From positions 1 through 10,947 of the forward strand of contig CAYHAA010000034.1 in assembly GCA_964354495.1 (NCBI GenBank): DNA of 10,947 nt, in the 5' to 3' direction. Every line of letters begins with the position of its first letter. Position 1 is the first letter of the stretch. Below the pieces are notes generated by a model. The model saw only the letters and a program-made list of their open reading frames with translations, did no database searches and was not told the origin of the DNA. Both the position numbers and the translations under genes were made by a program. The DNA comes from an uncultured archaeon. GTDB taxonomy: Archaea > Asgardarchaeota > Thorarchaeia > Thorarchaeales > Thorarchaeaceae. Positions 1 to 7,538 of this stretch are shown here, in pieces.

Positions 1-1091
1 TGGACAAGCATGATCGGAGGAACGACCGTGCTGTTCGAGATGAGCGAGGCTGCAGAGAGCTTCTTGTACTGCTCCTCAATTGGCAGGCCTCCCTCAACGA
101 AGGTGTCAAAGAACCCAGTCCCATCTCTTGTGATGTTTGTCACCGGATAGATCCAGATGCCGCCTCTGATGGTCATATTGGTGGAGAAGTTCCCTGCAAA
201 TAGCGGGTTCCTGTAGCCAAGCGTCACGAGTGAGGCGAGATTCCCTCCTGCTGACCTCCCTACAACGAAGACATTGTCCATGTCTGCTCTGTATCGCGAG
301 CTGTTGAGTTCAAGCGCCTTCGTGAAATGACCCACGTTCTCAATCTGGTCTTCAATGTTGTAACTGCCATTGTATGGGAACGAGACGAGTGATGTAAACG
401 TGGAGAAGACGCCGAATGAACCGCCAGGTAGAGTCGAGACATCGAGGAGACCATACTGAATATCGAACACTGCGTAGCCCCTCGATGCGAAGTACTGATT
501 GAAGAGCGGGATGTTCATGCTCCCCTTGTTGCCAAGAACCCATGCGCCGCCATGGATCACTATGATGACCGGGAATGGTCCATCACCCGCCGGACAATAC
601 CAGTCAAAGAAGAACGTGTCCTGCCCATTATTGAGATAGGGGATGTTGTACTCCACGCTGAACATTGTCTCATCAATGGGCATCCCGAACAGACTGTCAA
701 AGACCGAGTAGGCTGCAGGTCTCATCCCTGAGGTATCGAGGTCGGTGTATTGTGTTCCATAGACCGACAGCATCTGGCTCTCCGCCTCGGCAATAGCAAA
801 TGGTATCGATGGATAGGGAATGATTGCACCGATGAAGATGAATGTACAGATCCCAGTCACTATCAACATCCCTCTCCGCTTCCCCATGAATGAGAAACGG
901 ATGATGCTCACTCCGCTTGTCAGGACGAGGAGGAAGAGGAGCGGTGCAACGCTGGGATAGACGAAGGTAACGATCCAGCCTAGTGTTGAGGAGTCAAAGA
1001 AGAGGTAGAGGATGGTGACAAGTCCGAACAGCCCAATACAGACATAGCATAGAAGAAGTATGATATATCGAAGTATCCGCCAGGGTTTCAT
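1..1091 (-). CDS. Membrane-anchored alpha/beta hydrolase (HSL-like esterase/lipase, Abhydrolase_3/BD-FAE type), running off the left edge
   Basis: Hand translation from ATG at 1091 (MKPWRILRYIILLLCYVCIGLFGLV...) is open for 363 codons to the window edge. It has about 3 N-terminal hydrophobic helices, an oxyanion motif HGGAW (540-554), a nucleophile elbow GRSAG (246-260), and ends ...PPIMLVH. An AGGAG SD-like motif lies upstream. It is absent from the ORF track because no stop falls inside the window. Confidence 0.92.
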   Translation of the reverse strand, partial: MKPWRILRYIILLLCYVCIGLFGLVTILYLFFDSSTLGWIVTFVYPSVAPLLFLLVLTSGVSIIRFSFMGKRRGMLIVTGICTFIFIGAIIPYPSIPFAIAEAESQMLSVYGTQYTDLDTSGMRPAAYSVFDSLFGMPIDETMFSVEYNIPYLNNGQDTFFFDWYCPAGDGPFPVIIVIHGGAWVLGNKGSMNIPLFNQYFASRGYAVFDIQYGLLDVSTLPGGSFGVFSTFTSLVSFPYNGSYNIEDQIENVGHFTKALELNSSRYRADMDNVFVVGRSAGGNLASLVTLGYRNPLFAGNFSTNMTIRGGIWIYPVTNITRDGTGFFDTFVEGGLPIEEQYKKLSAASLISNSTVVPPIMLV

Positions 1092-1159
1092 ATCTATCTC
1101 CTATCAGTCGTGCTCGCGGTGTAGGGTCCCTCAATATTAATGCTTATTGTGATGCTCAA

Positions 1160-1204
1160 GAAGGGAAGACATTCAGGTCTGAATATCTCCCGTGCTATGA
1201 CTGT
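1160..1204 (-). repeat. R1: degenerate copy of the ACAD 3' end (putative att-like remnant)
   Basis: Minus frame reads TVIAREIFRPECLPF vs ACAD IVMGREIFGPEYLPY. 28/39 nt identical ungapped (1163-1201 vs 9693-9731). Confidence 0.8.
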
Positions 1205-1404
1205 CTCTTGCCCAACAGGATATGTGCTTCTAAGGTATTGTCTTTCATAGGGGCATGCAAATGCGTAGCAGAATGTGTGAGCTGACGGCTCTATTAACAC
1301 TCTGACTTTTCCAACGTTCTCTCTCTATTTCGATTTCGACTGCATCAATCTTCAGAGCCTGATGACCAAAGCGCAAAACGACTGTCACTCCAACAACATT
1401 CGGA

Positions 1405-2667
1405 CTATTCCAGCGCTATCTGCTCATATTTGGATTCGATGTTTGGATATCGGAATGTGTCGGCCCGAATTTTAACTTCTCCCTCTTCTGTAATCTCAAG
1501 AATCTCGGATCCCTCATGGAGAAGGTTGTGAATAAAATAACTAGTCGTGATTTCTGCCCATTTTCTCAGTTCTTCAGGGTGGGTAACTCTCTTGGGTGCG
1601 GTTCTTGCGAGGCCGACCCAATCATACCACCTTTCTGTCGCTTCAAAATCCCCACCATGGCGATCCGTTGAAGGGTCCCACCTCACCCCACCATATATGA
1701 CCTGAGCTTTGATCCACAACCATTTACCAGCAGACTTTATTGTTATCTTGCCAACAGGAGGATAAAACTCCGCTCTTTCATAAGGTCTTTTTTCCCAATC
1801 ACTGTCTACTTCCGTCTTCAATTGATCTATTAAGAAGTCACTCATATTCTTTACATCGATCTCCGAAGTCTCGACTTGCGCCTGCTGGTAGTCTATGATT
1901 GTTCGAAGGGGATCCTCGGAATCGACAATTGCAATCTCGCAAATCATTCCATTTTGGTCTATTGCAACAAACTCAAACATCAATGTAAATCCTATCTTGC
2001 GGAGTTGCCAACTAAGAAACTCTACTATTAGTGGTTCGATTGCCTCTGCTGGTGATTCCGTTTTAGAACTGATTGTTGGAGAGCCCTCCTTCAAATCAAT
2101 AGAAAAACCATTGTGTCTAGAACCCATTTCCACACGATAACCGAGAAATCTAGGGAATAGCGCTTGGAACTCTCTTCCCAGACGTTCGTATTCACCTGAA
2201 AAGGTGAAATCTTCGTAATCAATCAGGGCCGCATTGGGATTGTCAATAATACTATTTGCGTCCGCAATTAAGGCAATCTTGAATTGGGCCAATAACGCGT
2301 CAGTTTCTGGTCCAATTAGAAGGGCTTTAAGTTCGTAATCATCAATTTGCTCGAAAAGATTGATTATTGATTTGATTAGTTGCGTCCATTTCTTTGTGTT
2401 GAAATTATCCTCTTCAGCTTTTTCTATATATTCACCAAGAACCTCCAATTTACTCTGTATCGATTTTAATGCGTTAAGATTCACTTGACTGCTTTTTCTA
2501 TCAGCAACAGGTAGTTTAGTTAAGTCGGCAATTATCTTTTTCAACAGCTTTCCTAGCCCGTTGAACGCCTCGTGTCTAGCCTGTTTCGCTTCATCCGGAT
2601 GGATTAATTCTGCACGAACTATGTAAGGCAGTTTTTTCTCATGCATACTCAATGGCATCTCATCCAA
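1405..2667 (-). CDS. Hypothetical protein, about 420 aa, no family recognised
   Basis: Long AT-rich ORF. The annotated start is TTG; ATGs at 2658 and 2646 are alternatives. The N-terminus looks helical and the C-terminal half alpha/beta with several Trp. Confidence 0.85.
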   Translation of the reverse strand: MDEMPLSMHEKKLPYIVRAELIHPDEAKQARHEAFNGLGKLLKKIIADLTKLPVADRKSSQVNLNALKSIQSKLEVLGEYIEKAEEDNFNTKKWTQLIKSIINLFEQIDDYELKALLIGPETDALLAQFKIALIADANSIIDNPNAALIDYEDFTFSGEYERLGREFQALFPRFLGYRVEMGSRHNGFSIDLKEGSPTISSKTESPAEAIEPLIVEFLSWQLRKIGFTLMFEFVAIDQNGMICEIAIVDSEDPLRTIIDYQQAQVETSEIDVKNMSDFLIDQLKTEVDSDWEKRPYERAEFYPPVGKITIKSAGKWLWIKAQVIYGGVRWDPSTDRHGGDFEATERWYDWVGLARTAPKRVTHPEELRKWAEITTSYFIHNLLHEGSEILEITEEGEVKIRADTFRYPNIESKYEQIALE

Positions 2668-2758
2668 TTGCGATAAATCTACTCAATGCTGTATTGTTCG
2701 ATACTTCTCTTCACTTGTCTTATAGGCTGTGATTACGACTATGTTTTTCTCTCGTTTT

Positions 2759-5700
2759 CTATGAGGTGGTGCTGTAGGTCATTCTCTTTCTTAGGACAAG
2801 CATCACAACGAGTAATCCAATGAGCCCTCCGGAACTCACGAGGATCATAACCATGATACTCACTGATTGGTCTGTGGTTGATGGTGAAGTAGTTGTTGAC
2901 GTAGTGGATGTGTTTCCACTTCCTGGATAGTCCTGTGCGTCTAGTGGATTGGTTCCAGCTATTGTCTCAGCGCCATCCAGATATGTGTCATTATCGCTAT
3001 CGTCGTCTGTCGGATCTGTGCCTATCTTGACCTCGTAGGCATCGTTCAAATTATCGCAGTCAGTGTCAATACAGAGAATATCGGTTCCATAGAAAATCTC
3101 ATCGAGGTCATCCAACCCATCATAGTCTGTGTCTCCTATCGTCACTCCCAACTGATTGAGAACAGCTCGAATCTCATTGATGTCACCTATTACTGATGCG
3201 TTCAGTGTCTGTAACCACGCTGTGTTCTGAGTTACCAGTGCGGCAACAAGATCTAACTTGGTTGCATTTCCATTCATCTGGTCTATAACACTTAGCAAAA
3301 GACTTGCATTTCCTGCCATGTAGGTGAACAGAGTCTGGATAGCTGTGTGATTACCATCGAGCCATTCAATAACCTGGCTGAGATCAACAGGCTCCATGGA
3401 ATTCACTTGGTCGATGACATTCAATAAGAGGGTTTCATTCCCTGCAGACCAAGTCAGCAGATTCTGTATTAGGGTGCTATTGCCATTCAATGCACTGACA
3501 GTCTGGAAGAGAAGTGTAGCATTTCCATCAAGTTGTGTAAAGAGAGTACCAATGGCAGTATGGTTTCCATCAAGCCATACGATTACCTGCTGAAGCAGTG
3601 TTGCATTATTGTCCAGTTGTTGCATGACTATTTGTAGAAGTGAAGCATTGCCTGCAGACCAAGCCAGCAGATTCTGTATTAGGGTGCTATTGTAGTCAAG
3701 ATTCTCATAGATAGTGTCGTACCACGCTTGTGGTATTGCTGGATATGACATTGGGTCCAAGGGATTTGATCCATAGAGGATCTCATATGCATCTAGGAAA
3801 TTGTCGTTATCAGAGTCAATTCTAAATGGATTGGTCCCATATATCATACTTTCAGTCCAGTCTGGAATAGAATCCATGTCAGTATCAAAAGAGAACACTG
3901 CCACATAGAGGTCATAGTCGCCATCAATCTGTGAATCCAATGCGAATTGTGTTGGGAAGTCAGTGGATGCTGTTGCACCTGTGATATAGATATAGCCATT
4001 CTTGACTTCAATACCAAATCCATAGTCTAGATCATTCCCACCAAAGTATGAACTGGAGATGAGGAATGCTCCATCACCTGACAGAATGGTCAACGCACAA
4101 TCAGGGTTGGCAAACGTTGAATCATATGCATACATCAAAGGAAAATCGTTAGATTCTGTATAGGAGAGAACATGTGCGTATGTGTTGTATATTGCGATAT
4201 CGAATGCCTGGTCATGTCCACTTCCTCCAATGAAGGTGCTGTAAATAAGGGATTTCTCATCTTCGGAGAGCTTTGCAACAAAGACATCCCAACCTCCGTT
4301 GTACACTCCGTCGTACGCATTAGCAGTTGGAAAATTGGATGACTGGGTGCATCCTACTAGGTAGATATGCCCGTTTGAAAGTGCAAGTCCAGTTACATAG
4401 TCATTTCCTGCACCACCAAGGAAAGAACTATAGATTAGCTGCTCACCAGCTATTGACACATTAGCAATGAAGCAATCTGACCCCCCGTTGTAGGTCGAAT
4501 CGTAAGCATTCACAACAGGGAAGTTCGAGGATTCTGTATAGCCAGCTACAATTGCATGGTGATTATTTACAGTGATTGCGTGTCCTCTGTCGAATAAGCT
4601 TCCTCCAAGATATGTGCTATATGAAATACCTGAACTATGGACACACGACACAAATGCATCTGCTCCCCCATTTATTGTAGTATTCATAGCCGTAATGGAG
4701 GTAGGATAGTCTGTAGAATAGGTAAAGCCAGTTATGTACACTAGTCCGGACCCTACTGCAATTGCTTCACTCATATCAAACCCAGAACCGCCTATATATG
4801 TGGAATAATGAAGCGATTGTCCATTCCAAGCCAGGTATCCCACAAAACAATCCCGATTTCCATTGTATGTCGGGTCATAAGCGCTCACATTGGGGAAGTT
4901 AGACGATTCAGTCCATCCTGTGAAATAGACCTCTCCATTGACCACTGACAATCCAGTCCCACTGTCAGCACCATCACCACCAATGAACGTACTGTAGATA
5001 ATTGACTGTCCATTAGCTGCTAGTTTCATAATGAAGCAGTCATCGTTTGTACCATATGTCGAGTTGTAAGCATTTACAACTGGGAAATCGAATGAAGACG
5101 TTTTTCCAGTCACATAGATAAATCCATTCTCGACCTTGATATCATAACCAAAATCATTGCCAGAACCTCCAAGTAATGTTGAGTACGCGAGAACGACAGG
5201 ATCAATCACTAATTCTCTTGAATGGTCATATTCGCCTATATTGAATCCAACAGTATCGAAAGACTCACAAGAGAAGGTGCAATCTATCTCTGGATTTCTT
5301 TCTTGAAATGCTTTCAATTCTGAATCAACTAATCGCTGGTCCCCTTGTTCAATCGTTATTTGATCAACAGCGAAGTTGATACGATCTATACCAACGTATC
5401 TCATTTTGATACAATTGGAATCTGTATCAGGCGATACGATGAATTCATACTTGAGATTGGACTCCTGTATTTTGTAGACTAGGTCAATGCCTAGGTAGAT
5501 CTCACTGTACCTAAGCACTGCACAGTCATTCAGACCAGTTTTCCATTGACTACTATCTGAGCCATAGAAGTAGTTTGTCACAGAACCAGTCGGTTGTTCG
5601 CCTTCTGGTATAACATGGTTACTACCAAGAAACTCAAGAGTGAACAGCTCATTATTGACTAGATAGTATACCACAGAGGCTCCGAAATAAGCTACAACAC

Positions 5701-5995
5701 TCAAACCACGTCTACAAACGAAGTATAGGCCCTCTTCTTGAGATGCTGTGGGTGTGAAAGTCATCACATTGAGATTTTCATCACCATTATACTCAAGTTT
5801 GCTTGGTAAGTCAAGAGTTTCTGGTTCAAGACTGCTTTCGGGACTTGCCTGCAATTCTTTAACCAGAGTAACGTTTTCAGTTATGTTCGAAGAGACTATG
5901 CACAAAGGAGTCCCTATCAACATAAGAAAAATAAATGATAATGTGGCATATTGTTTCATCTGATTATCTCTTCTAAGGGGATTCATTGCTTTCAT
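2759..5995 (-). CDS. Large cell-surface protein: signal peptide, conserved N-terminal domain, 7 SBBP beta-propeller repeats, TSP3-like Ca-binding repeats, helical stalk, S/T linker, C-terminal TM anchor
   Basis: Hydrophobic N-terminus (likely start MKQY at 5959). The N-terminal domain ending LVIDP is typical of SBBP-associated proteins. Seven YST(Y/F)xGG..D repeats, two DxDxDxxxD clusters, a TSTTSTTTSPSTT linker, and a C-terminal TM followed by RKR. Confidence 0.93.
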   Translation of the reverse strand: MKAMNPLRRDNQMKQYATLSFIFLMLIGTPLCIVSSNITENVTLVKELQASPESSLEPETLDLPSKLEYNGDENLNVMTFTPTASQEEGLYFVCRRGLSVVAYFGASVVYYLVNNELFTLEFLGSNHVIPEGEQPTGSVTNYFYGSDSSQWKTGLNDCAVLRYSEIYLGIDLVYKIQESNLKYEFIVSPDTDSNCIKMRYVGIDRINFAVDQITIEQGDQRLVDSELKAFQERNPEIDCTFSCESFDTVGFNIGEYDHSRELVIDPVVLAYSTLLGGSGNDFGYDIKVENGFIYVTGKTSSFDFPVVNAYNSTYGTNDDCFIMKLAANGQSIIYSTFIGGDGADSGTGLSVVNGEVYFTGWTESSNFPNVSAYDPTYNGNRDCFVGYLAWNGQSLHYSTYIGGSGFDMSEAIAVGSGLVYITGFTYSTDYPTSITAMNTTINGGADAFVSCVHSSGISYSTYLGGSLFDRGHAITVNNHHAIVAGYTESSNFPVVNAYDSTYNGGSDCFIANVSIAGEQLIYSSFLGGAGNDYVTGLALSNGHIYLVGCTQSSNFPTANAYDGVYNGGWDVFVAKLSEDEKSLIYSTFIGGSGHDQAFDIAIYNTYAHVLSYTESNDFPLMYAYDSTFANPDCALTILSGDGAFLISSSYFGGNDLDYGFGIEVKNGYIYITGATASTDFPTQFALDSQIDGDYDLYVAVFSFDTDMDSIPDWTESMIYGTNPFRIDSDNDNFLDAYEILYGSNPLDPMSYPAIPQAWYDTIYENLDYNSTLIQNLLAWSAGNASLLQIVMQQLDNNATLLQQVIVWLDGNHTAIGTLFTQLDGNATLLFQTVSALNGNSTLIQNLLTWSAGNETLLLNVIDQVNSMEPVDLSQVIEWLDGNHTAIQTLFTYMAGNASLLLSVIDQMNGNATKLDLVAALVTQNTAWLQTLNASVIGDINEIRAVLNQLGVTIGDTDYDGLDDLDEIFYGTDILCIDTDCDNLNDAYEVKIGTDPTDDDSDNDTYLDGAETIAGTNPLDAQDYPGSGNTSTTSTTTSPSTTDQSVSIMVMILVSSGGLIGLLVVMLVLRKRMTYSTTS
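3227..3691 (-). repeat. In-frame 14-aa tandem repeat (11 units, 10 starting with N-x-S/T); includes a 42-bp near-exact DNA duplication (3441-3482 / 3651-3692)
   Basis: Units such as NSTLIQNLLAWSAG, NASLLQIVMQQLDN, NATLLQQVIVWLDG, NHTAIGTLFTQLDG; one unit is 15 aa. The 42-bp copies are 210 bp apart with 1 mismatch. Confidence 0.9.
3887..5185 (-). repeat. Seven ~63-aa SBBP beta-propeller repeats
   Basis: Repeated YSTxxGGxxxD.....V.....Y.TG.T.S.DFP...AY motif counted 7 times in the translation. Confidence 0.9.
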
Positions 5996-6130
5996 TACAT
6001 CAGTATATCAGCACTGAAGATTCCTTATCAATTGGTAGAAGCTCCCTATTACCTTTGAGATGCTATCAACACTCTTCTTTTGTAATAGCACATTGCCTCA
6101 TTCTCTCTAATGCATGTTTGGTAAAGACAA

Positions 6131-6355
6131 TCACGCTGTAACGACCTCTGCGACTAGTTCTTCATCACGAAGCTTGACCAAATGGTTGAGCTCAAGATCC
6201 CTCTTTGAAAAAGCGATAACCTCAATGCCGCAGATGTGTCCACTGGAACTATAATCAACAATAACCCCTGCTCCTATCTCGATACTCTCTACTACCTCTG
6301 CTCCTCTGAATCTGAAATAAATAGAATCTGTAACCTTATTGTATTCTACTTGCAT
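6131..6355 (-). CDS. DUF2283-family protein (putative antitoxin), no adjacent toxin
   Basis: 74 aa with the pattern YNKVTDSIYFRF...VESIE...GVIVDY...GHICGIEV. GGTGA SD-like motif just upstream. Confidence 0.85.
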   Translation of the reverse strand: MQVEYNKVTDSIYFRFRGAEVVESIEIGAGVIVDYSSSGHICGIEVIAFSKRDLELNHLVKLRDEELVAEVVTA

Positions 6356-6411
6356 TCTTATTCACCAATCATTATCCCCAACATCACCAACTGCCCTTGA
6401 TTGACCATTAT

Positions 6412-6437
6412 CAGATTTGCGCTCATTCGCCAATCTG
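6412..6437. promoter_or_regulatory. Conserved inverted repeat/hairpin in the DUF2283 leader (copy A)
   Basis: CAGATT-t-GCG-ctcatt-CGC-c-AATCTG. The sister copy at 9441-9466 shows a compensatory change. Confidence 0.55.
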
Positions 6438-6524
6438 CTCTCCTATTGTCATACTAGGAAATTGATATTGGTGGCTAAATCCAATTGGAAGAATAGGAAC
6501 ACCTTGTCTCGAATTGATCGTGAG

Positions 6525-6531
6525 AATTATA
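6525..6531 (-). promoter_or_regulatory. Possible TATA box with purine-rich upstream (BRE-like) sequence
   Basis: Minus strand AAGAGATGGAGATATAATTCTC. GATATAATTCTC is also conserved in block B (9545-9551). Confidence 0.3.
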
Positions 6532-6758
6532 TCTCCATCTCTTGTAGATGAGACAGTAGTATCCTGCATGTGCAAAGAATACCTTTGAATATGAAGAGTG
6601 AATCATGAAAGAGATGTGATTCATCTTCTTTCGTATTCAAACCTAGAGTCCCTCCATATCCGTAATTGAACCAGCCAGACTCCATGAACCCTCCAGTTAT
6701 CGAGAAATCACGTACCACCTCACACTAATCAGTCTGTCTGTTTTAGAGAAAGGCTAGG

Positions 6759-6777
6759 GAGAGGATATGAACCTCTC
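6759..6777 (-). terminator. Terminator-like hairpin just after the R2-frame stop
   Basis: GAGAGG-7nt-CCTCTC, 4 nt beyond the TAA (6782-6784) closing the R2 frame, followed by a pyrimidine-rich tract on the minus strand. Confidence 0.45.
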
Positions 6778-6796
6778 TCGATTAGGCTCTCAGAAC

Positions 6797-6862
6797 CTGC
6801 ATCTGCTTCTCTTGGCGATGCGGCGAATGATCTATTCCAAAGATCATACGAGCCATGAGGAT
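6797..6862 (-). repeat. R2: degenerate copy of the ACAD 3' end
   Basis: Minus frame ILMARMIFGIDHSPHRQEKQM vs IVMGREIFGPEYLPYRQEKQM. 41/63 nt ungapped; 6800-6819 matches 9672-9691 at 19/20. The stop position reads CAG instead of TAG. Confidence 0.85.
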
Positions 6863-6866
6863 TGCT

Positions 6867-7295
6867 TCACCTGTTGGCTGCAAACACCTGGTTTCCACGC
6901 ACCGCTCCGTGAAGGACATAGTTGATCAGACCTCCAAAAGCGAGTAGCAAAAGAAAAATAGCTAAATCCGGGCTTGACGCTCTAAAGAGAACTGTGTCGA
7001 GGTCATACTCGGTAGGAGGTATTATGTTGACGAAACTGATGATTCCCCCCGCAAGAGAACTCAGAATGAGTATCAATATCGAAAGATACCTTAGTCTTAT
7101 TGCTCCTTTTTCAGTGAGTCTTGAGTCTTTCGGAAATCCCTGGCCAGTTATTTGTTGATTCGTCTTCAACAGCCAGAGCTGCATTGACGAATACGCGAAA
7201 CCGAACAATGATAAGAACCCTACACCAGCAAGGAACCATGTCACCACAAACAGCTCGACATCACTCAACATGTGTGTAGCCTCCCACGAATCCAT
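6867..7295 (-). CDS. Hypothetical membrane protein (~3 TM helices), 142 aa
   Basis: Three hydrophobic stretches (FVVTWFLAGVGFLSLFGFAY; LSILILILSSLAGGIISFVNII; LAIFLLLLAFGGLINYVL). No family recognised. Confidence 0.75.
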   Translation of the reverse strand: MDSWEATHMLSDVELFVVTWFLAGVGFLSLFGFAYSSMQLWLLKTNQQITGQGFPKDSRLTEKGAIRLRYLSILILILSSLAGGIISFVNIIPPTEYDLDTVLFRASSPDLAIFLLLLAFGGLINYVLHGAVRGNQVFAANR

Positions 7296-7330: not shown

Positions 7331-7361
7331 AAGGAGAGAGCTAAGAAGGTCTCTCATCCTT
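7331..7361 (-). terminator. Terminator-like hairpin just after the R3 stop
   Basis: AAGGA-GAGAG-10nt-CTCTC-a-TCCTT (10 bp with one bulge), 6 nt beyond the TAG at 7368-7370. Confidence 0.5.
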
Positions 7362-7367
7362 TTGGAA

Positions 7368-7436
7368 CTACGTGTGCTTCTCATAGCGATATGGGAGACA
7401 TTCAGGTCCAAAGATCTCTCTCGCTTGGACTATTCT
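7368..7436 (-). repeat. R3: best-preserved copy of the ACAD 3' end, including the stop codon
   Basis: RIVQAREIFGPECLPYRYEKHT* vs RIVMGREIFGPEYLPYRQEKQM*: 16/22 aa and 49/69 nt, ungapped, with the stop at the same position. Confidence 0.92.
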
Positions 7437-7538
7437 CTCTACTGAACGGAATGCTAATATTCTAGGCTTAATCACCGTTGGGCAGCATCCTTGACGTGTC
7501 CAGTGGATGCGTGCTATTGAACTGGGGCGGTCATACGA

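Follow-up and report, generated by a model that had tools for sequence, protein, structure and literature searches.

Tail-plus-hairpin units of an acyl-CoA dehydrogenase gene bound a one-sided cassette array in Thorarchaeota

It is poorly understood how Asgard archaea gain their many foreign genes. In polymorphic toxin genes (rhs, cdiA) orphan C-terminal modules are stacked behind the full-length gene. The tycheposon islands of Prochlorococcus reportedly form tandem or additive islands at one attachment site, either tRNA or gene 3' ends, and are said to include integrase-less members, and chromosomal integrons, including archaeal ones, were reportedly described by Ghaly et al. in 2022. In the mORFs of fungal mitochondria the gene takes a foreign C-terminus in place of its own, and the native piece is left untranslated further downstream, the two showing mostly synonymous differences (PMC3630166), as in atp6 of Allomyces macrogynus and in atp6, atp9, cox2 and nad3 of Glomus sp. 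(Beaudet et al. 2013, PMC3630166, citing Paquin et al. 1994). Here we analyse a window of 10,947 bases, the entire contig C34 of a Thorarchaeota metagenome-assembled genome (MAG; 3.3 Mb, 51 contigs), in which the end of an acyl-CoA dehydrogenase (ACAD) gene recurs together with a hairpin and separates blocks of accessory genes. We found no description of such arrays for Asgard archaea in the literature searched.

The ACAD array extends two known kinds of system, namely C-terminal replacement by homing endonucleases and tandem islands at a gene 3' end. Four of the loci studied, and not the window, have exactly the mORF order of a core, an apparently inserted tail, an open reading frame (ORF) of the LAGLIDADG type (in mORFs also GIY-YIG) and a native remnant; also as in mORFs, the tails of the ACAD arrays diverge mainly synonymously, and the class of the tail disagrees with the tree of the core (at least 9 changes). 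Unlike mORFs, the ACAD arrays lie on an archaeal chromosome and not in an organelle, their endonuclease gene stands antisense behind a terminator-like hairpin instead of in frame with the host gene, the process would have been repeated up to 7 or more times to give arrays, and the cargo of most cassettes is ordinary accessory genes with no endonuclease among them, as is the case throughout the window. With tandem islands the arrays share cargo that is split by co-oriented partial copies of the target 3' end, a target that remains whole and a content variable among relatives; they differ in that no integrase was found in the arrays or (as PF00589) in most of the genomes, by a target that is the tail of a protein gene of ~70 nt with a hairpin, and by cassettes that go down to ~0-500 bp. 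The likeness to integrons consists in a one-sided array of short cassettes with structured repeats, growing from a fixed point; however, the ACAD arrays have no IntI, their repeat is a gene-tail copy with a short perfect hairpin and not attC, and the cargo lies on both strands with no common promoter logic evident. As in rhs and cdiA, displaced alternative C-terminal coding pieces stand behind a whole gene, but here the pieces are 23 codons of a conserved metabolic enzyme, the protein stays near-identical and there is no toxin/immunity logic. Aloposons (PMC8813620), tRNA-targeting elements with giant genes, were also considered and are unlike the ACAD array.

The unit and its spread

The ACAD gene that anchors the array (Table 1; below, G000 is the window's own genome, C stands for its contigs, L for the loci studied and P for representatives of ACAD orthologue clusters) encodes a protein 78-94% identical to its orthologues in Thorarchaeota MAGs and ending in ...RIVMGREIFGPEYLPYRQEKQM, the R0 peptide. 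The genes upstream of it are ordinary and conserved, and no tRNA or tmRNA that could serve as a target is found in the window. The row reads ACAD-R0-cargo-R4'-cargo-R3-cargo-R2-cargo-R1, where R0 is the live tail and the other four are remnants. These copies were detected by a repeat search and a profile search, all of them lie on the ACAD strand, and their nhmmer E values range from 1e-8 to 7e-19 against the 3.3 Mb genome. An initial annotation of this DNA had listed three remnants, all of which are present; the total is four, R4' having been overlooked. More units occur in the same genome on contigs C8 (at 117.9, 108.5, 98.3 and 87.8 kb) and C42. Contigs of related strains, aligned to the window at 85-97% identity (the best DNA sequencing runs share 5-13% of the window's words, and no RNA run was among the matches listed), were used for breakpoints, uncovered parts of the window counting as no evidence. 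They break at 9619/9620 and 9751, the borders of R0, and at 8562, the border of R4', and one such contig skips 131 nt which are exactly R0.

In 27 genome-derived and 29 metagenome-derived Thorarchaeota loci, copies of the ~76-nt ACAD tail lie downstream of the orthologous ACAD gene. All recurring units are co-oriented with ACAD, up to 8 of them within 8 kb (L004, L109), and at least two were found in 17 of the 24 non-redundant loci having at least 3 kb of downstream sequence. The unit is composed of the last ~23 codons of ACAD, the stop, 10-15 nt, a purine/pyrimidine hairpin and a T/C-rich run; since some units follow one another at a spacing of 135-157 nt with almost nothing in between, its whole length is ~130 nt. 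Direct repeats of the ACAD 3' end flank each cassette. Cassettes can be as short as ~0-500 bp, their genes lie on both strands, and the cargo (68 array ORFs and the genes of C8, C42 and the window) consists of accessory genes, among them dehydrogenases, flavodoxins, GNAT, ArsR, peptidases, glycosyltransferases, transporters, beta-helix and beta-propeller surface proteins and toxin-antitoxin genes of DUF2283/DUF4258 type. Loci L011, L020, L025 and L164/L165 have no array and carry the hairpin at the live ACAD end. The layout amounts to a one-sided array of cassettes that occurs across the phylum, with ACAD tail-plus-hairpin units as the cassette borders.

Coding signature of the remnants and exchange of tails

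The R3 remnant, whose peptide is RIVQAREIFGPECLPYRYEKHT, was compared with the live tail codon by codon, and the counts given initially hold: among the 23 codons of R3 (7368-7436) and R0 (9669-9737) 9 are identical, 8 differ synonymously and 6 non-synonymously, with the TAG kept. The 20 nucleotide differences fall 3/4/13 on codon positions 1/2/3, which corresponds to a pS of 0.78 and a pN of 0.18 (Nei-Gojobori; ratio 0.23). The peptide of R2 is ...ILMARMIFGIDHSPHRQEKQMQVLRA. Pooling ~55 remnants of 27 loci gave the same picture as this single pair, with 175/110/480 differences between remnant and live tail at the three positions. Expressed as rates, remnants differ from the live tail of the same locus by 0.18/0.11/0.48 (chi-square 301), live tails among themselves by 0.20/0.09/0.58 and remnants between loci by 0.19/0.16/0.46; these pooled comparisons are not independent of one another, the effect being very large. 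Most remnants are in frame with the stop and translate to IVMAREIFGPDYLPYRQEKQM. In-frame stops or frameshifts occur in few of them (L001 6898, L005 14446, L015 11307, L009 12552), as would be expected for untranslated DNA. From the codon-position bias we conclude that the variation of the remnants arose largely under protein-level selection. The argument made earlier, that neutral decay would not favour synonymous changes, was sound in so far as the bias is real and overstated in so far as the live partner's own evolution contributes to it; gene conversion from the live tail could be an additional source.

The tails themselves have been exchanged repeatedly. ACAD proteins of 60 cluster representatives end in one of two classes, A (...RQEKQx before the stop) and B (...RQK[GQRS]Q..[DE]), and on a tree of the ACAD body, from which the tail was excluded, the class switches at least 9 times, at least 7 of the switches being forced by well-supported branches. 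The sister pairs P0003/P0004, P0021/P0041 and P0012/P0034 have near-identical bodies and different tail classes. At L040 and L070 the live tail is of class B and the remnants of class A, which fits displaced older tails, and at L006, L040, L070 and L017 the live tail differs as a block from all its remnants. At L010 the remnant beyond the endonuclease gene encodes, from codon 2 through the final one, a peptide identical to that of the live tail (IVMGREIFGPECLPYRQEKQM), with about a dozen nucleotide differences between the two. Among live genes, distances of the unit follow body distances less closely (r 0.55) than do those of the 300 nt before it (0.90), 64 nt being too short to decide. A separate observation concerns P0033, a Thorarchaeota ACAD orthologue of 437 aa, whose C-terminus is a Cys-rich stretch ...CPSCSKKVDTEKPFCPHCGKKV and not the usual tail; the ACAD tail may here have been replaced by, or read through into, a zinc-ribbon-like piece.

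From this it would be logical to suggest that R3 and its hairpin belong to a series of ACAD tail units that were displaced, pushed aside by repeated insertions, and we regard this as probable. The core of the initial annotation, in which the remnants are former working ACAD ends with their own hairpin, later displaced, is the best-supported explanation, considering the pooled synonymous bias, the kept frame and stop, the unit hairpin, the tail swaps and the layout in relatives. We propose that the ACAD 3' end is an insertion hotspot in Thorarchaeota. An incoming segment would bring its own ACAD tail and hairpin and join the resident body, so that the gene stays whole, and the resident tail would be left behind the new cargo as an untranslated remnant; repeated rounds would produce a row of remnants and cargo. 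The units would differ mainly synonymously, and keep their stop and hairpin until decay, because each derives from a working ACAD end of its own lineage or of a donor.

The part of this proposal that concerns another host has a rival, in which the remnants are copies of the resident tail made locally at each insertion, through a long target duplication or the Campbell-type entry of a circle, and owe their coding pattern to the evolution of the live copy and to conversion. Several features are common to copies within one genome, such as Arg encoded by CGC in R0, R2, R3 and the C8 unit at 117.9 kb, GNE in three remnants of L006 and QEKQK in L017/L018, and they speak for such local copying, together with the third-position excess that remains in within-locus remnant pairs (0.17/0.13/0.36) and with arrays that show no steady decay. 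It is nevertheless improbable, given the four loci where the live tail differs as a block from the remnants, the class switches between near-identical ACAD bodies and the divergence of R3 from R0, which at 29% is ~2x the whole-gene distance to the nearest species. Local duplication would still derive the remnants from a working tail and therefore contradicts only the 'other host' part of the initial idea.

Hairpins, borders and the way of entry

The three hairpins that had been reported behind R0, R3 and R2 were all located at the expected coordinates, 3-12 nt past the stops. The GAGAGG-loop-CCTCTC stem, seen behind R2, is the commonest type in the family, and its exact GAGAGG...CCTCTC motif occurs 9 times in the 3.3 Mb, 4 of the 9 within array regions; GAGAGAGG-loop-CCTCTCTC and AGGGAGC-loop-GCTCCCT are other typical stems. 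The 5' arm is rich in purines, and a T/C-rich run follows the hairpin. Perfect stems of 7 bp or more, whose 5' arm consists of purines to at least 75% and which lie no more than 50 nt from the stop, accompany 83% of live ACAD ends and 52% of remnants, compared with 3.5% of other gene ends. In absolute numbers, 44 of 71 units have such a stem against 93 of 2666 other gene 3' flanks in this genome (Fisher p 4e-42, odds ratio 45), which places the units far above other gene ends and agrees with the initial view that the hairpins belong to the tails. The unit hairpins have 39 distinct stem sequences, and the folding energies of the units are lower than those of control flanks (p 5e-8). From the enrichment it follows that the hairpin belongs to the unit and is not a terminator of general use in this genome; it is a specific, conserved component of the tail unit. 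RNAalifold found no consensus for 57 hairpin regions on a MAFFT alignment and formal covariation was not obtained, because MAFFT failed to register stems that differ in sequence and offset; the hairpin statistics were computed per sequence instead of by alignment. No Rfam family matched, the only sub-threshold one being MicX at 9620-9722 (23.7 bits, where the gathering score is 75), which we took as chance.

The layout at the units, a stable stem and a T-rich run shortly past the stop, is terminator-like, and judging by this position and the T-run, its most likely role is to end the ACAD transcript or to stabilise it. Alternatively, the hairpin may be the functional core of the unit, as a single-stranded DNA structure for a nuclease or recombinase (attC-like, HUH-type) or as an RNA element, with the tail carried along. 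Such a role is consistent with the 45-fold enrichment at units, which a general terminator would not show, with stems that vary while the structure is kept, and with hairpins on C8 (107383, 108430) that flank a MaoC gene without a recognisable tail. We give it little credence, since the hairpin keeps its terminator-like place, 3-12 nt past the stop and before a T/C-rich run, at the live ends of every lineage, array-free loci included, and since the arrays showed no gene of HUH or IS200 type, no Rfam family was matched and RNAalifold gave no consensus on the MAFFT alignment.

The borders of the unit raise the question of site-specific capture similar to that of integrons. In this scheme the ~130-nt unit or its hairpin would be the attachment site of an unrecognised recombinase encoded elsewhere, and circular cassettes would enter at the ACAD end, the coding-like part rebuilding the gene. 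The 5' border of the unit is indeed fairly constant, falling at model positions 1-12 in ~45 remnants, around the junction of ...CACATAC with AGAAGATCGTCATGG; it is also ragged, by up to 12 nt in general and by 24-40 nt in some remnants, and the tail copies of two other genes in this genome, one ChsH2-like and the other for serine hydroxymethyltransferase (SHMT), have far more ragged borders and argue against a single dedicated site. A site would account for the spacing of near-empty unit pairs, for a tail end that is conserved at the nucleotide level including third codon positions, next to a hairpin conserved by structure, and for the coincidence of related-strain contig breaks with unit borders. 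It would also fit the Zn alcohol dehydrogenase (ADH) cassette, which is shared with L004 and L040 (80-82% identity, intact 340-aa copies there), is flanked by units and occupies different array positions in the three genomes. Unlike integron cassettes, however, the cargo is on both strands, and the enzyme is missing where it was sought. PF00589, the tyrosine recombinase (phage-integrase/Xer) family, had no match at E <= 0.01 in G000 and in 4 of 5 other array-bearing Thorarchaeota genomes (those of L010, L004, L008 and L023), one negative genome being 97.7% complete, and was matched in 14 of 14 control genomes; this absence would be striking if true for the lineage. Neither an integrase nor a transposase is among the families listed for the cargo (the 25 commonest of 79 Pfam families in 68 ORFs) or among ~40 further proteins including the cargo of C8, C42 and the window, serine recombinases not having been searched genome-wide. 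With no recombinase family seen in the cargo, we consider site-specific capture unlikely.

The gene that does recur in the arrays encodes a protein of 560-1070 aa with a C-terminal two-motif LAGLIDADG domain (PF14528, 24-36 bits against a cut-off of 22.5), and both motifs keep the invariant acidic D residues. Its AlphaFold model has a pLDDT of 75, and the top Foldseek matches are PI-SceI, TliVMA, I-SceI and I-DmoI, with probability 1.00. The protein is predicted from the motifs and the model to be a free-standing homing endonuclease, though it may also be in a WhiA-like non-catalytic state. The gene or a fragment of it is present in 12 of 44 loci, always in the first cassette and never deeper, always convergent with ACAD, and it starts 56-351 nt past the unit (no more than 111 nt in 11 of the 12). 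The order of ACAD core, live tail with hairpin, endonuclease gene and remnant is found at L093 and L010, where it is clean, and at L090 and L092; at L093 the units are at 1904 and 3815 and the endonuclease gene at 2046-3644. At two of these loci we also observed, just upstream of the LAGLIDADG gene, co-oriented with it and in the same cassette, the gene of a ~890-aa protein with weak P-loop matches of HerA/FtsK/AAA_22 type (L090 13608-16298 and L092 13565-16177, minus strand); the two genes may form a mobile module.

As for the way of entry, which we infer, our preference within the displacement explanation, held with a little less than even confidence, is a double-strand break made by the free-standing LAGLIDADG homing endonuclease. 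Repair of the break would copy the donor tail, hairpin and cargo, with the remnant unit as the right-hand homology. Once two units were present, a remnant could guide the copying of any DNA situated between units, and homologous recombination of the Campbell type could add, delete and exchange cassettes without a dedicated enzyme. In our reading LAGLIDADG would seed the insertion in at least part of the family. Whichever of the rival explanations weighed here holds, it would alter the mechanism, and the remnants would still come from working ACAD ends.

A number of observations weigh against the displacement of working tails or against this entry. It had been expected that intact orthologues would be found with tails ...RYEKHT, as in R3, or ...QMQVLRA, as in R2; none was found in the 60 cluster representatives or in ~50 loci. 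The QVLRA of R2 is no true tail variant: its original stop is now CAG, so these residues are read-through. The odd residues of the R3 and R2 tails are more likely to be decay after displacement, and the R3 features IVQARE and GPEC are present in live tails. The syntenic loci L164/L165, 15% apart overall, differ in tail class without any cassette, only the last ~5 codons and the hairpin being different and no clean junction being visible; a tail swap is therefore not always tied to an insertion. Remnants of different lineages lie nearer to a common consensus (...CAAGAGAAACAGATGTAGTTTCA) than live tails do to one another, and this is also compatible with cassettes spreading horizontally, with gene conversion or with a constraint at the DNA level, for example as a recombination site, and remnant scores show no steady decay with distance from ACAD. 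On the side of the endonuclease, the first cassette of the window holds DUF2283/PBECR3 genes and the window has no endonuclease gene, most cassettes show no trace of one, and none of the four LAGLIDADG paralogues of the window's own genome is at ACAD; beside the paralogues on C33 and C3, which are convergent to other genes, no tail remnants of the neighbour genes were detected.

We may even suggest, as a rather speculative generalisation that we hold to be doubtful, that gene capture in Thorarchaeota, and perhaps in the Asgard archaea as a whole, proceeds without an integrase, a tail with a hairpin being the portable homology handle. LAGLIDADG would seed the first duplication through a cut in the tail and repair from a donor, after which accessory cassettes would be gained, lost and traded, also at the ChsH2-like gene and at SHMT. 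The ACAD tail array offers a concrete and testable route of gene gain for these archaea, with a predicted homing-endonuclease gene at the growing end in a quarter of lineages, and would extend the organelle trick of C-terminal replacement by endonucleases to cellular chromosomes. For annotation, short in-frame 'pseudogene' tails with good hairpins would mark insertion history and not gene decay. The units also delimit cassettes, which makes the accessory gene pools of uncultured lineages comparable.

Features of the window and other arrays of the genome

Table 1. Tail units, hairpins, cassettes and genes of the window, with positions counted from its first base (MFE, minimum free energy)
Feature	Position	Strand	Description
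ACAD gene, array anchor	9669-10910	-	413 aa; Pfam Acyl-CoA_dh_N/M/1; translation
R0, live tail unit	9620-9745	-	last ~23 codons 9672-9739, TAG 9669-9671, hairpin 9633-9656, T-rich run
R0 hairpin	9633-9656	-	12 nt past stop; MFE -11.4 kcal/mol
Cassette 1	8607-9619	-	DUF2283 (9178-9384), PBECR3-like nuclease (8819-9178), DUF2283 (8637-8831); Pfam
R4', fourth remnant	8562-8606	-	only first ~45 nt of unit (IIMAQELFRPDYL), then end of ADH cassette; E 2.8e-6
Cassette 2, Zn alcohol dehydrogenase (ADH) gene	7539-8527	+	frameshifted, split over two frames
R3 remnant	7363-7438	-	22 in-frame codons and TAG (7368-7370); E 7e-14
R3 purine/pyrimidine hairpin	7331-7361	-	AAGGAtGAGAG ... CTCTCTCCTT; 6 nt past stop; MFE -11.6 kcal/mol
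Cassette 3, predicted membrane protein	6867-7295	-	142 aa; no Pfam family
R2 remnant	6793-6867	-	former stop now CAG (6797-6799); frame continues to TAA 6781-6783; E 6e-12
R2 hairpin	6759-6777	-	GAGAGG-loop-CCTCTC; 3 nt past in-frame TAA; MFE -14.9 kcal/mol
Cassette 4	1216-6758	-	DUF2283 (6131-6355); 1078-aa DUF7948/SBBP/TSP3 surface-type protein (2759-5995); 420-aa unknown (1405-2667); Pfam
R1, outermost remnant	1140-1209	-	TVIAREIFRPECLPF...; tail end and hairpin lost; E 1.4e-8
Alpha/beta hydrolase gene past R1	3-1091	-	Pfam BD-FAE/Abhydrolase_3; runs off contig

By its domain content the first cassette looks like a toxin-antitoxin module. The window copy of the ADH gene probably has a deletion of 1 nt, because a contig of a related strain has an additional A behind 8153. 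Two copies of ~400 nt, 6192-6597 and 9221-9617, comprise a DUF2283 gene and the region upstream of it; they are 78-81% identical and stand directly behind a unit each (R2 and R0, respectively). A third DUF2283 gene, paired with DUF4258, was noticed on C8 directly upstream of a unit (L082 15752-16206). On the same contig two hairpins of the GAGAGG...CCTCTC unit type, at 107383-107399 and 108430-108448, flank the gene of a MaoC dehydratase; of the ACAD tail, the one at 108430 retains no more than the final ~15 nt (gagaaacagatgtag) and the one at 107383 nothing, and both look like heavily 5'-truncated units.

Tail copies were also seen behind other genes of this genome. The ChsH2-like gene, of Zn-ribbon/OB-fold type, lies on C10 (32220-33032, minus strand) and is followed by at least 8 co-oriented downstream copies of its last 48-160 nt, at 22555, 20769, 18760, 9950, 7551, 4963, 4243 and 2015, all ending at the stop and with ragged 5' borders; the array spans 2015-33032, of which locus L166 covers 20001-34000. 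The last ~40 codons of the SHMT gene on C3 (115151-116488) recur in frame 5.4 kb further downstream, at 121867-121988, with 81% nucleotide and 87% amino acid identity. A LAGLIDADG paralogue of 1144 aa is found 1.6 kb beyond this copy, convergent with a GNAT gene (C3 115151-126993, locus L167). On C4, the gene at 16787-18046 has a ~130-nt copy of its 5' start 2 kb upstream (14756-14887 against 16779-16910), the two flanking another gene, and this copy may be the mirror image of the ACAD case, that is, a 5'-end remnant.

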